64,000 nt of DNA from Candidatus Latescibacterota bacterium (GCA_965248355.1 OZ252098.1:2848001-2912000); one strand, 5' to 3'; shown: positions 17,305-21,184, counted from the stretch's first letter. Notes: generated from the sequence alone by a model not told the origin. Numbers and translations are program-made.

Positions 17305-18234
17305 ATGCGAATGCCTCTTTTCTCCCTGCTGACTCTGCTGCCTCTGTTCGCGCCCGGCGCCGCCATCGCCCACGTCGGCGACGTGATCTACCCCATCTTC
17401 GAGCTGCTCGACGAGGACCTGGACCGCATCGACCTGACCGACGGCAGCGTCGAGGACTGGCTGGAGGTCGTCGGCGAGCCCTCCCTGACCGCCGCCGACT
17501 TCGTCTGGGGGTATCAAGGCGAATTCGAATACGATCCATCGGAAGTCGACTTCCGCATCTGGCTCGCCTGGCACCAGGGCAGCAGTACCCTCTGGATCGC
17601 CATGGAGCGCTTCGATGATATCTACTTCAACCTCTACGACGGGGACAAGCCCTTCGAGATGCGACTCTGGGATTCCAGCCTGCGGTTCTATGTCGACGGC
17701 GACCATACCGGCGGGCCATTCAGCTACCGTCTCGGGTGGCTGTGCGAGGATTGCACGGCCGAGGAACTCCTGGAGAACAACCGTCAGGCGCAGCATTGGA
17801 TGGTGATCGCCGAGGCACCCGACGGCGAGAATCTCTACCATCACGGTGCCAGCGAGTGGGTGGCCCGGGATCCGTACGCCGCCGCGGGGGGCGGCGTCAT
17901 CGGCGAGACCCCGGCCCTGACGGTCACCGAAGTCAAGGTCACGCTCTTCGACGACCTCATCTACAACGACGAGGACGCCTCCCGAGCCTCGCAACTCTAC
18001 CTTGGCAAGACCATCGGATTCCAGATAACGACACGCGACAATGACGATACGCAGTGGGACGACGGGTACGGCGAAAGCCTCTTCCTTACACTCGCCTTGC
18101 CGTGGTCAATAACCAACGCCGATTTCTTCGTCGACGGCCTGCTGCTCGGGGCCGGGGAAGACCCCTCCCGCTACGACGACGTTTCCGCCGTGGAGCCGTC
18201 CTCCTGGGCGCGCATCAAGGCCAGCTTCAAGTAG
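17305..18234 (+). CDS. Secreted paralogue 1 (type A), CBM9/DOMON-like, C-terminal VEPSSWARIK tag
   Basis: AGGAGG SD; signal peptide AIA|H; IDLTDGSVEDW, WDS..VDGDH, GK.IGF..DND motifs. Confidence 0.85.
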   Translation: MRMPLFSLLTLLPLFAPGAAIAHVGDVIYPIFELLDEDLDRIDLTDGSVEDWLEVVGEPSLTAADFVWGYQGEFEYDPSEVDFRIWLAWHQGSSTLWIAMERFDDIYFNLYDGDKPFEMRLWDSSLRFYVDGDHTGGPFSYRLGWLCEDCTAEELLENNRQAQHWMVIAEAPDGENLYHHGASEWVARDPYAAAGGGVIGETPALTVTEVKVTLFDDLIYNDEDASRASQLYLGKTIGFQITTRDNDDTQWDDGYGESLFLTLALPWSITNADFFVDGLLLGAGEDPSRYDDVSAVEPSSWARIKASFK

Positions 18235-18288
18235 CTGCTCGCGAGGACAGACACGCTCCCCGGACCTCCGCCTCACCAAGGGAGCACC

Positions 18289-19236
18289 ATGCGCACGACC
18301 CTTTTCGCCCTGCCGGCTCTGCTCCTGCTCCTGCTCTTGGGCATGGCCGGGGACGCCCACGCCCACATCGGCGACGAGATCTACCCCTTCTACGAGCTCC
18401 TCGACGAGGACCTGCACCGCATCGACCTGACCGACGGCAGCATCGAGGACTGGTACGACGTCCTCGGGGAGCCCTCGCTGACGGCCGTCGACTTCTACTA
18501 CCCGCGGTCCCACTACGATCCCGGAAACTGTGACTTCCGCTTCTGGCTCGGCTGGCACCGCCGCAGCGGGACCCTCTGGGTCGCCATGGAGCGCTTCGAT
18601 GACATCTACCACAACAACTATGCGGGAGGGACTCTCGAGCCGGGGTTTCCCCGCCCGGCGATGGTTCTCTGGGATTCCTACTTCAGCTTCATGGTCGACG
18701 GCGACCATTCCGGCGGCCGGTACCAGTTTGGACACCACTGCGAGGGGTGCACGGTAGAGGAGGCCAACCTCCTGAACAACCGTCAGGCCCAGCACTGGAT
18801 GGCGATCGCCGAGACGACGGCGGGCCGACAGGTGGGCTATGACGGCGTCAGCGAGTGGGCCGTGAGGGAGCCGTACGCCGCGGCCGGAGGCGGCGTCCTC
18901 GGCGCGACTCCCGCCACCTCGGTCACCGAGATGAAGGTGACCCCCTTCGACGACCTCATCTACGACGACGAAGCCGCTTCCGCAGCCTCGGAGCTGTATC
19001 CCGGCAAGGTCATCGGCTTCAACCTCTACACGATCGACAACGACGCCACCGAGTTCAGTGACGGAATGGGGCCGCTTGACTTTCAGTGGCTGTCCGACAG
19101 GGTGTCTACCCTCAGCTTCGCCGATCTCTTCGTCGACGGTCTGCTCGTCGGCGCCGGAGAAGACCCCTCCCGCTACGACGATGTCTCCGCCGTGGAGCCG
19201 TCCTCCTGGGCGCGCATCAAGGCCGCCCTCGAGTAG
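18289..19236 (+). CDS. Secreted paralogue 2 (type B)
   Basis: Same framework as paralogue 1; AHA|H; ends VEPSSWARIKAALE. Confidence 0.85.
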   Translation: MRTTLFALPALLLLLLLGMAGDAHAHIGDEIYPFYELLDEDLHRIDLTDGSIEDWYDVLGEPSLTAVDFYYPRSHYDPGNCDFRFWLGWHRRSGTLWVAMERFDDIYHNNYAGGTLEPGFPRPAMVLWDSYFSFMVDGDHSGGRYQFGHHCEGCTVEEANLLNNRQAQHWMAIAETTAGRQVGYDGVSEWAVREPYAAAGGGVLGATPATSVTEMKVTPFDDLIYDDEAASAASELYPGKVIGFNLYTIDNDATEFSDGMGPLDFQWLSDRVSTLSFADLFVDGLLVGAGEDPSRYDDVSAVEPSSWARIKAALE

Positions 19237-19262
19237 TCCCCCCGCCGCAAAGGAGGAGCACC

Positions 19263-20189
19263 ATGCTCACCTTCCTCGTTCCCCTCCTGACCCTGGCCCC
19301 GCTGCCAGGCCTCGCGAGCGCCGTCCACGCCCACATCGGCGACGAGATCTACCCCTTCTACGAGCTGCTCGACGAGGATCTGGAACGCATCGACTTGACC
19401 GACGGCAGCGTCGAGGACTGGATCGAGGTCGTCGGCGAGCCCTCGCTCACGGCCAGCGATTTCTTCTGGCTGTTCGGTTCGTACGACCCGTCGGATCTGG
19501 ACATCCGCCTCTGGCTCGCCTGGCACCAGGGCACCAGTACCATCTGGGCGGCCATGGAGCGCTTCGACGATATCTACGTCAACCGCTACGACGGGAACCC
19601 CTTCAACATAGAATACTGGGATTCCTCCATCACCCTCTTTGTCGACGGCGACCACTCCGGTGGGCGGTTCACCTCCGTGACGCCGTACTTCTGTGAAGGG
19701 TGCACGACCGAGCAACTCCTGGAGGACAATCGTCAGGCGCAGATCTGGATTGCGATCGGCGAGGCGCCCCATGGCGAGCATCTGGTCCATATCGGCGCCG
19801 GCCGCGAGTGGGTGGCCAGGGAGCCGTACGCCGCGGCCGGAGGCGGCGTCCTCGGCGCGACTCCCGCCACCTCGGTCACCGAGATGAAGGTGACCCCCTT
19901 CGACGACCTCATCTACGACGACGAGGAGGCCTCCGTGGCTTCGGAACTCTACCCGGGCAAGGTCATCGGATTCGACATCTGGACGCGGGACACCGACGAT
20001 CTTACGCCTCCCGGCATTGATCACCTGATCTTTCTGTTGCTGAGCGAAGGCGAGATGCGATCCCGGGCTGACGCCGATTTCTTCGCTGACGGCCTGCTGA
20101 TCGGCGCCGGAGAAGACCCCTCCCACTACGACGATGTCTCCGCCGTGGAGCCGTCCTCCTGGGCGCGCATCAAGGCCAGCTTCAAGTAG
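19263..20189 (+). CDS. Secreted paralogue 3 (type A)
   Basis: AGGAGG SD; VHA|H; WLAWHQG as in paralogue 1. Confidence 0.85.
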   Translation: MLTFLVPLLTLAPLPGLASAVHAHIGDEIYPFYELLDEDLERIDLTDGSVEDWIEVVGEPSLTASDFFWLFGSYDPSDLDIRLWLAWHQGTSTIWAAMERFDDIYVNRYDGNPFNIEYWDSSITLFVDGDHSGGRFTSVTPYFCEGCTTEQLLEDNRQAQIWIAIGEAPHGEHLVHIGAGREWVAREPYAAAGGGVLGATPATSVTEMKVTPFDDLIYDDEEASVASELYPGKVIGFDIWTRDTDDLTPPGIDHLIFLLLSEGEMRSRADADFFADGLLIGAGEDPSHYDDVSAVEPSSWARIKASFK

Positions 20190-20245
20190 CTGGTCGCGAG
20201 GACAGACACGCTCCCCGGACCTCCGCCTCACCAAGGAGGAGCACC

Positions 20246-21184
20246 ATGCGCACCTGCATCGTTCCACTCCTGACCTTGGCCCCGCTCCTGGGACCAACCT
20301 CCGTCGCCCACGCCCACATCGGCGACGAGGTCTACCTCTTCTACGAACTCCTCGACGAGGACCTGCACCGCATCGACCTGACCGACGGCTCCGTCGAGGA
20401 CTGGCACGACGTCCTCGGCGAACCGTCGCTGACAGCCGCCGACTTCTACTACCCGGACTCCCACTACGATCCAGGCAACGTGGACAACCGCTTCTGGCTC
20501 GGCTGGCACCGGCGAAGCGGGACCCTCTGGGTCGCCATGGAGCGCTTCGATGACATCTACCACAACAACTATGCGGGAGAGATCAACGAGTGGGGGTTCC
20601 CTACGATGAACCGCTGGGACTCCTCCTTCAGCTTCATGGTCGACGGCGATCACTCCGGTGGCCGCTACCTGTTTGGAAACAACAGCTGCGATGGGTGCAC
20701 GGTAGAGGAGATCAACCTCCAGAACAACCGCCAGGCCCAGCACTGGCTGGCGATCGCCGAGACGGCGGAGGGCCAACACGTGGCCTATGACGGCGCCAGC
20801 GAGTGGGCCACGAGGGAGCCGTACGCCGCCGCCGGTGGCGGCGTCCTCGGCGCCACCCCCGTGACTTCGGTCACCGAGCTGAAGGTGACCCCCTTCGACG
20901 ACCTCGTCTACGACGACGAGGCCGCTTCCAAAGCCTCGAGACTGTATCCGGGCAAGGTCATCGGCTTCGCCATCCACACGATCGACAACGACGCCACCGA
21001 GTACAGTGACGGATTGGGGCCTGCAGACCTTCAGTGGCTGAGCGACAGGAGCGGGGCCTACCAATCCGCCGATCTCTTCGTCGACGGCCTGCTGCTCGGG
21101 GCCGGAGAAGACCCCTCCCGCTACGACGACGTCTCCGCCGTGGAGCCCTCTTCCTGGGGGCGGATCAAGGCCAGCTTCAAGTAG
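20246..21184 (+). CDS. Secreted paralogue 4 (type B)
   Basis: AHA|H; WLGWHRRSG as in paralogue 2; ends VEPSSWGRIKASFK. Confidence 0.85.
   Translation: MRTCIVPLLTLAPLLGPTSVAHAHIGDEVYLFYELLDEDLHRIDLTDGSVEDWHDVLGEPSLTAADFYYPDSHYDPGNVDNRFWLGWHRRSGTLWVAMERFDDIYHNNYAGEINEWGFPTMNRWDSSFSFMVDGDHSGGRYLFGNNSCDGCTVEEINLQNNRQAQHWLAIAETAEGQHVAYDGASEWATREPYAAAGGGVLGATPVTSVTELKVTPFDDLVYDDEAASKASRLYPGKVIGFAIHTIDNDATEYSDGLGPADLQWLSDRSGAYQSADLFVDGLLLGAGEDPSRYDDVSAVEPSSWGRIKASFK

Follow-up and report, generated by a model that had tools for sequence, protein, structure and literature searches.

A stretch of 64,000 nucleotides (nt) from a Candidatus Latescibacterota bacterium (GCA_965248355.1, OZ252098.1:2848001-2912000; referred to as the window, whose coordinates are used throughout) harbors at 17305-21184 four tandem open reading frames (ORFs) on the + strand, which encode paralogous proteins of 308-315 amino acids, termed here T1 to T4. 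According to our best explanation, to which we assign a probability of roughly 0.55, these proteins are exported ligand-binding modules with a CBM9 fold that are sent to, or held in, the cell envelope by a C-terminal tag, that carry paralogue-specific segments around their pocket as well as a probable metal site, and that owe their diversity to ordinary processes (gene duplication, drift, and gene conversion). Each pre-protein would be composed of a Sec-type signal peptide, a CBM9-fold sandwich of about 265 residues, an acidic linker, and the tag. Following export, cleavage after an A-x-A motif would leave a His as the first residue (His1, which is His26 of the T2 pre-protein; residue numbers below are those of T2), and the tag would then address or tether the protein in the envelope. 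The sandwich would be the working part, binding a ligand that is most likely a carbohydrate. Since the segments that differ mainly between paralogues appear to adjoin the CBM9/DOMON pocket and the candidate site of His1, His140, and Asp283, the paralogues probably differ in ligand. Such differences would have arisen as genes were duplicated, surface segments came under relaxed constraint, and copies exchanged sequence by gene conversion, with no dedicated diversification mechanism being involved.

Fold, family, and array

The assignment of the fold is based on structure prediction. An AlphaFold2 model of T2, generated from 145 aligned sequences, had a mean predicted local distance difference test (pLDDT) score of 90.6 and a predicted template modelling (pTM) score of 0.87, and a second AlphaFold2 model, of the mature protein and generated from 104 other sequences, had values of 89.0 and 0.88, respectively. 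A Foldseek search retrieved the CBM9 entries 7nwo, 7nwn, and 1i82 at E values of 2e-9 to 3e-8. Structural alignments with VIA-align resulted in Z scores of 19.2 for 7nwn, 18.5-18.8 for 1i82_A (root-mean-square deviation of 2.5, 187 of 189 residues aligned), 16.3-16.4 for 4jpq, 10.9-11.1 for NxrC (7b04_C), and 10.6-11.0 for EbdC (2ivf_C). At the sequence level, the family profile finds 1i82 at an E value of 0.005, and 2 of 20 paralogues of the genome match the Pfam CBM9_1 model (PF06452; best E value, 3.5e-5). As modelled, the domain is a CBM9-type sandwich of the DOMON superfamily with about 75 extra residues. An earlier prediction made from the sequence alone, referred to below as the original prediction, had guessed a CBM9/DOMON-like beta-sandwich and had proposed structure prediction followed by Foldseek as a check; the guess was right, with CBM9 modules emerging as the best match.

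Clear similarities and differences emerge from the comparison with characterized and putative carbohydrate-binding proteins. The modelled domain has the same beta-sandwich as CBM9-2 of Thermotoga maritima Xyn10A (1i82) and CBM9 of Caldicellulosiruptor kristjanssonii (7nwn/7nwo), with 187 of 189-195 residues aligned at Z scores of 18.5-19.2, and it shares with these modules an acidic D-x-D-H turn and an IGF...D-x-D block. However, sequence identity is only 12-13%, and T1-T4 are about 75 residues longer. Whereas the CBM9 modules are xylanase appendages, T1-T4 are stand-alone, single-domain proteins that are predicted to be exported, and, unlike CBM9 modules, they possess a conserved His as predicted mature N terminus and the C-terminal tag. 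In CBM9 modules, the reducing-end sugar is held by a two-tryptophan clamp, formed by W71 and W175 in TmCBM9-2, and T1-T4 have an invariant W that, in the sequence alignment, is located one column off the first clamp position. Another stand-alone DOMON/CBM9-like sandwich is BACUNI_03838 (4jpq), a putative carbohydrate-binding protein of Bacteroides uniformis, of which 196-197 residues were aligned. Its identity to T2 is 8%, it lacks the tag, and neither protein has an assigned function.

T1-T4 form one local cluster of a family that is expanded in this lineage. None of the four proteins matches a Pfam or NCBIfam model at E <= 1. In the host genome, which is a single contig of 5.5 Mb, a profile built from the four genes matches 21 places, and a wider profile, based on 20 paralogues, gives 25 matches at E <= 1e-10. 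In one protein library, 391 proteins match the family at E <= 1e-3; in a second library, there are 1927 representatives of clusters formed at 50% identity at the same threshold, 435 of which match at E <= 1e-30. The public members mostly have about 300 residues, and all of them are unnamed or annotated as "hypothetical". All 18 further genomes sampled from the same taxonomic family contained members (1-39 matches each, often in tandem), as opposed to none of 12 genomes from two sister families. The count of family copies proposed in the original prediction thus amounts to about 25 in the host genome and 1-39 in its relatives. Related loci were found in metagenome-assembled genomes (MAGs) labelled Latescibacterota or Gemmatimonadota/Gemmatimonadaceae, in a search that used an alignment of close relatives and whose patterns favor close relatives. 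Latescibacterota, Gemmatimonadota, and Poribacteria are the commonest taxa in the look-alike clusters of the ESM Atlas, in which 13-94% of the members have CBM9_1.

The fold and the superfamily are known, but the family itself, with its His triad and its use of the tag, appears to be undescribed: the searched literature, which covered few subscription journals, contained no description of the family, the N-terminal His triad, or the tag. Judged by title or abstract, no paper retrieved there on the histidine brace and DOMON domains dealt with the present fold. Among related reports, PMC6081418 names CBM9 as one of the more abundant CAZy families of a metaproteome, and PMC12993501 gives counts of carbohydrate-active enzymes for Latescibacterota MAGs.

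The array itself was found precisely where the original prediction had placed it. The ATG start of each gene is located 6-10 nt downstream of an AGGAGG-like site, and the intergenic spacers comprise 26-56 nt. T2-T4 are 62-67% identical to T1, T2 and T4 share 79% identity, and the mean column identity of the four-gene alignment is 76%; direct DNA repeats with four occurrences are spaced 947-1002 nt across the array. The alignment contains all the conserved blocks quoted in the original prediction, including HIGDE..., AMERFDDIY, VDGDH, NRQAQ, PYAAAGGGV, FDDL, GK.IGF, and GAGEDPS...SSW.RIK, as well as both sets of variable-loop examples given there. Read by eye, each protein starts with a signal-peptide-like stretch that ends in A-x-A; of 145 family sequences, 97 have A, 31 have G, and 8 have S at position -1 relative to the predicted cleavage site. 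A scan for promoters and terminators yielded 0 promoter-like sites and 3 terminator-like sites versus 1.5 expected, which is not above chance. The base composition of T1-T4 (GC content of 0.65-0.68, GC content at third codon positions [GC3] of 0.85-0.87) is below that of the neighboring genes (0.72-0.75 and 0.94-0.98, respectively).

The C-terminal tag

The C termini of T1-T4 consist of an acidic linker of about 15 residues and a tag of about 14 residues with the consensus A-V-E-x-x-S-W-[GA]-R-I-K-A-x-[FL]. Linker and tag together (the last ~25 residues) are predicted to be flexible, with pLDDT values of about 56 and below 50 in the two models. The pattern [ST]W[GA][RQKG][IVL]K has 32 matches in the six-frame translation of the host genome, every one of which is followed by a stop codon at a distance of 3-10 residues; in the reversed genome, used as a control, there were 2 matches, neither of them near a stop. 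A looser pattern was found in 38 ORFs of more than 100 codons, namely, 23 family members and 15 others. Of the latter, one is likely to be in the wrong frame and ten have an evident signal peptide. When the 14 remaining non-family ORFs were submitted to Pfam, five were found to have domains: Temptin_C, sCache_2 (twice), Lipocalin_4, and Rieske. The tag is thus portable, being strictly C-terminal, modular, and common to unrelated exported proteins. Small exported carriers of the tag (Rieske, CxxCH/Temptin_C-like, stand-alone sCache_2, and lipocalin-like proteins) are encoded at loci L034, L027, L029, L039, and L032, corresponding to G000:C1:4625170-4625622, 464720-465190, 4900370-4900933, 4898604-4899050, and 1361730-1362371.

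The tag ends 131 of 150 family representatives and 0 of 10 long forms, whereas 9 of the 10 long forms end in FlgD_ig/Por_Secre_tail domains. The host genome encodes a type IX secretion system (T9SS), with 1 SprA_N, 118 FlgD_ig, and 23 Por_Secre_tail matches. The C-terminal sorting domains of this system (PF18962 Por_Secre_tail; FlgD_ig-like) occupy the same C-terminal position as the tag, and proteins with the family domain carry either the one or the other. The tag is not itself a T9SS domain, since the latter is folded, with an Ig-like sandwich 67-108 residues in length (PMC11285876), whereas the tag comprises about 14-16 residues, is predicted to be flexible, and has no Pfam match in T1-T4.

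The local variant of the tag ends in A-[SA]-[FL]-x, and most of its carriers in the host genome belong to a single family. A degenerate DNA version of the pattern was detected in genomes of the same taxonomic family, namely, in 34 of 39 genomes of a class-level sample and in 56 of 63 of a phylum-level sample, with up to 88 matches per genome, and also in a few other families of the phylum. In sister families of the class, it occurred in 3 of 41 genomes with one match each, which corresponds to the control level. Several genomes of the same family (e.g., G064, G041, and G053) contain 53-88 matches to this DNA pattern, as compared to 15 in the host genome.

Variation, the candidate metal site, and competing explanations

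Family members differ mainly in five or six segments, both in sequence and in length. These segments, which were picked after seeing the alignment, correspond to T2 residues 69-77, 91-94, 108-126, 143-156, 173-186, and 252-281. Pairwise Nei-Gojobori comparison of ten close paralogues (45 pairs) resulted in ratios of nonsynonymous to synonymous substitution rates (dN/dS) of 0.43-0.83 for whole genes, values that are high but inflated by the strong codon bias (GC3 of ~0.87). The corresponding ratios were 0.49-1.61 for the variable segments, with 0.87-1.61 for the closest pairs, versus 0.30-0.46 for the framework, the former being inflated because the regions were chosen after the variation had been seen. 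The dN of strands and helices was similar to that of coil (12 pairs, with the secondary structure taken from the model), so the variation is not confined to loops.

Tree-based counting was carried out on 33 close sequences (10 from the host genome and 23 from related loci), for which 306 of 347 columns were kept and 41 gappy, indel-rich columns were dropped; counts were made by parsimony on one tree, despite gene conversion. Nonsynonymous/synonymous ratios were 0.68 for the variable regions (0.48-0.84 by region), 0.37 for the framework, 0.32 for the tail, and 0.90 for the signal peptide. Evidence for dN > dS at p < 0.05 was found at 4 of the 306 sites, two of them in the signal peptide, which is no more than expected by chance, and 85 sites were under purifying selection. 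The per-site analysis suggested in the original prediction hence provided no indication of driven diversification. Variable segments 252-262 and 268-281 flank both ends of the strand 263-267, and, judging from the order of secondary structure elements, a single variable face is unlikely.

Exact runs of 107 nt between T2 and T3 (Table 1), 64 nt between T2 and T4, and 54 nt between T1 and T3 are present in copies that are otherwise about 65-85% identical. Together with the 95% identity between the 3' ends and spacers of T1 and T3, these mosaic copies indicate gene conversion. T1-T4 orthologues occur in related genomes. Contigs of three DNA runs from three studies show 0-1 differences in the variable parts of T1, T3, and T4 (matching stretches are, for example, 17555-17975, 19337-19663, and 20560-20821), although such contigs cannot reveal rare variants; short-read contigs fragment over the array, and none spans all of it. 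No reverse transcriptase was identified among the 19 window ORFs scanned, which are part of the ORFs of the window. Taken together, these data point to relaxed constraint and gene conversion, and not to driven hypervariation.

A second feature that distinguishes this family concerns the N terminus. The residue following A-x-A is His in all four proteins, and its conservation pattern is suggestive of a site, probably a metal-binding one, to which this free N-terminal residue would contribute together with His140 and Asp283. His140 forms part of a D-G-D-H-S-G-G motif that aligns with the matching turn of 1i82. Eleven residues past His140, a C-x-x-C pair (T2 residues 151-154, at ~18739-18750) is invariant in T1-T4; it is restricted to one clade, being present in 24-28 of 104 locus sequences and in 12-19 of 145 family sequences, and could be a disulfide or a metal ligand.

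The original prediction had interpreted the array as a candidate diversified binding system with an antibody-like scaffold. Spelled out, this explanation would require hypervariable loops that cluster on one face and are actively diversified, be it through selection or through a mutagenic mechanism. Family members do exist in many copies and often stand in tandem, with about 9-10 copies in the largest arrays of relatives, and the existence of a multi-copy scaffold family with five or six segments that vary in sequence and length was borne out. Whole-gene dN/dS values of 0.43-0.83 are high for bacterial genes, those of the variable regions of the closest pairs reach 0.87-1.61, and gene conversion could shuffle loop cassettes. 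However, the post hoc choice of the variable regions inflates their ratio, the tree-based ratios remain at 0.48-0.84 with dN > dS at only 4 of 306 sites, and dN is alike in strands and coil. In addition, the paralogues have orthologues in other species, their variable parts differ by 0-1 base across three studies, and a reverse transcriptase is absent from the 19 window ORFs scanned. The segments are therefore not hypervariable or antibody-like in the sense proposed, and we consider this explanation improbable. More improbable still is a DOMON-type domain that holds heme b or another redox cofactor and acts in periplasmic electron transfer, like the heme subunits of ethylbenzene dehydrogenase and nitrite oxidoreductase. 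DOMON-type heme domains have the same superfamily fold, as illustrated by Z scores of 10.9-11.1 for NxrC, 10.6-11.0 for EbdC, and 5.5-6.0 for the cytochrome domain of cellobiose dehydrogenase; furthermore, a Rieske and a CxxCH protein are among the other proteins that bear the tag, and two His residues are co-conserved. Yet the similarity to CBM9 is far greater and extends over the whole module (Z scores of 18.5-19.2), His140 lies about 12 residues past the column aligned with the CBM9 pocket, and the conserved columns include no nearly invariant Met or Lys. Conserved heme ligands are not evident in the family.

Another alternative, possible but unlikely, is that of a metal-centered protein: on a CBM9 scaffold, a Cu(II) site of the histidine-brace type would be made up of His140, Asp283, and the free His at the N terminus. 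In that case, the paralogues would bind copper or oxidize polysaccharides, with their differing loops setting the substrate. A His/His/Asp set that includes the N-terminal residue is reminiscent of CopC and X325, which bind Cu(II) at such a site, and of lytic polysaccharide monooxygenases (LPMOs) with their His brace. His follows the predicted cleavage site in 122 of 145 family sequences and in 102 of the 104 sequences taken from genome loci; in a crude background set of 155 signal-peptide-like host ORFs, which includes family members, His comes after A-x-A in 8. His140 is kept in 121 of the 122 sequences with an N-terminal His but in only 10 of the 23 without it (Fisher test, p of 1e-11, which ignores relatedness), and the columns most strongly tied to the N-terminal His are G28, H140, and D283. 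Of the 104 locus sequences, 102 carry the triad H/H/D and the other 2 carry Q/K/S; mixed forms do not occur. In the small sample of ten long relatives, all 7 complete forms with an N-terminal copy have the domain directly after the signal peptide, and 6 of these 7 keep D-G/A-D-H, whereas 2 internal copies have N or W at the His140 position. The variable segments, moreover, adjoin His140 and Asp283 in sequence. Histidine-brace copper proteins (LPMOs of families AA9/AA10, CopC, and X325) have His as the first mature residue, as is predicted here, a domain position that is always N-terminal in multidomain proteins, and multi-copy families with variable surface loops; they also have a second His, with or without an Asp, conserved along with the first, which the above counts suggest for the present family. 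On the other hand, the fold appears to differ, with a CBM9 sandwich in T1-T4 and an LPMO or CopC sandwich in those proteins, and the metal site in T1-T4 is putative. In a test of phylogenetically independent pairs, of which there were only 6, too few to reach significance, His140 changed in the same way in 2.5 and in the opposite way in 0 (median p of 0.5), and several control columns also moved in 1-2. One of the long forms has an N-terminal His but Q in place of His140, Gln replaces the N-terminal His in about 10% of the family (14 of 145), and His140 aligns with a His of 1i82, an internal module and as such without a free His at the N terminus. The 50 best matches of a structural search over 48,161 chains include no LPMO or CopC, which does not exclude them, and there are no copper or glycan-degradation genes nearby. 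An extended version of this explanation, namely, a new histidine-brace class in which a CBM9 sandwich present in dozens of copies per genome holds Cu(II) via His1/His140/Asp283, loops select polysaccharides or other substrates for binding or oxidation, and the W-G-x-I-K tag delivers the protein to the envelope in place of a T9SS domain, appears quite unlikely.

Several observations also weigh against the explanation we prefer, that of envelope-directed CBM9-fold ligand-binding modules. The two-tryptophan clamp appears not to be conserved family-wide, since the column adjoining the first Trp is W in 14 of 145 sequences and, in the sequence alignment, the column of the second Trp falls within a variable segment. 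A glycoside hydrolase domain was found in 0 of the 10 long relatives scanned, whose partner domains are propellers, leucine-rich repeats (LRR), cohesin, and CBM9_1. Some tag carriers, such as the Rieske, Cache, and CxxCH proteins, look periplasmic and not surface-exposed, and the proposed function of the tag is an inference. The flanking genes are unrelated housekeeping genes that offer no functional link. Nor does the one RNA run analyzed speak for expression, as it contained only pieces with 9-42 differences per 100-500 nt; these are derived from relatives or paralogues, and such libraries can hold DNA too.

Genomic setting and implications

The features of the array are compiled in Table 1.

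Table 1. Location of the T1-T4 genes and of sequence features within them, in window coordinates
Feature	Position	Strand	Remarks
T1	17305..18234	+	309 aa; signal peptide, CBM9-fold domain, linker, C-terminal tag
T2	18289..19236	+	315 aa; copy used for structure prediction
T3	19263..20189	+	308 aa
T4	20246..21184	+	312 aa
T1 predicted signal peptide	17305-17370	+	Equivalent of the T2 stretch
T2 predicted signal peptide	18289..18363	+	25 aa, A-H-A end; cleavage predicted by eye
T3 predicted signal peptide	19263-19331	+	Equivalent of the T2 stretch
T4 predicted signal peptide	20246-20314	+	Equivalent of the T2 stretch
T2 His26 codon	18364..18366	+	Predicted first mature residue
T2 D-G-D-H-S-G-G motif	18697..18717	+	Residues 137-143, including His140
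T2 Asp283 codon	19135..19137	+	Third residue with conservation tied to the N-terminal His
Exact 107-nt run common to T2 and T3	18865..18971 and 19818-19924	+	Gene-conversion tract
T1 3' end and spacer	18116..18281	+	95% identical to 20071-20236 (T3 3' end and spacer)
T1 tag	18184-18231	+	Equivalent of the T2 tag
T2 tag	19186..19233	+	Last 16 codons, S-A-V-E-P-S-S-W-A-R-I-K-A-A-L-E
T3 tag	20139-20186	+	Equivalent of the T2 tag
T4 tag	21134-21181	+	Equivalent of the T2 tag

The annotated genes flanking the array encode a GNAT acetyltransferase, a phosphodiesterase-family protein, ComEC, FxsA, and a class I lysyl-tRNA synthetase. A second, looser cluster of four family genes (G000:C1:2921979-2932247, locus L025) is located 10-20 kb past the end of the window. 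It is interleaved with genes for an ATP-binding cassette ATPase, a sodium:solute symporter, a radical S-adenosylmethionine enzyme, an A24 peptidase, a GT4 glycosyltransferase, and a BtrH_N protein, and no partner gene recurs between the neighborhoods of the array and of this cluster. Elsewhere in the window, a giant ORF at 1-9030 (+), open at the window start, encodes at least 3009 amino acids of a eukaryote-like repeat protein with LRR, fibronectin III, cadherin, low-density lipoprotein receptor class B, PKD, and Big_9 repeats, and its C-terminal region is similar to leishmanolysin (M8) peptidases. At 37142-38425 (+), a Mutator-family transposase (Transposase_mut, E value of 3e-36), which is probably an insertion sequence, is located in the patch of the window with the lowest GC content (0.60, at 36-38 kb).

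The family described here comprises 1927 clusters without a name, a matching model, or an assigned function, with up to 39 matches per genome in uncultured bacteria labelled Latescibacterota or Gemmatimonadota, and its placement in the CBM9 fold offers a testable starting point, namely, glycan binding. The pattern of variation illustrates that a tandem array combining conserved blocks with variable loops is, by itself, no sign of an adaptive diversification system. Should the N-terminal His/His/Asp set prove to bind copper, it would bring the histidine brace to a new fold and a new set of organisms. Furthermore, the occurrence of the same domain with either the tag or a T9SS domain represents a well-controlled case of an apparently undescribed envelope-sorting signal in bacteria of the Fibrobacteres-Chlorobi-Bacteroidetes (FCB) type.

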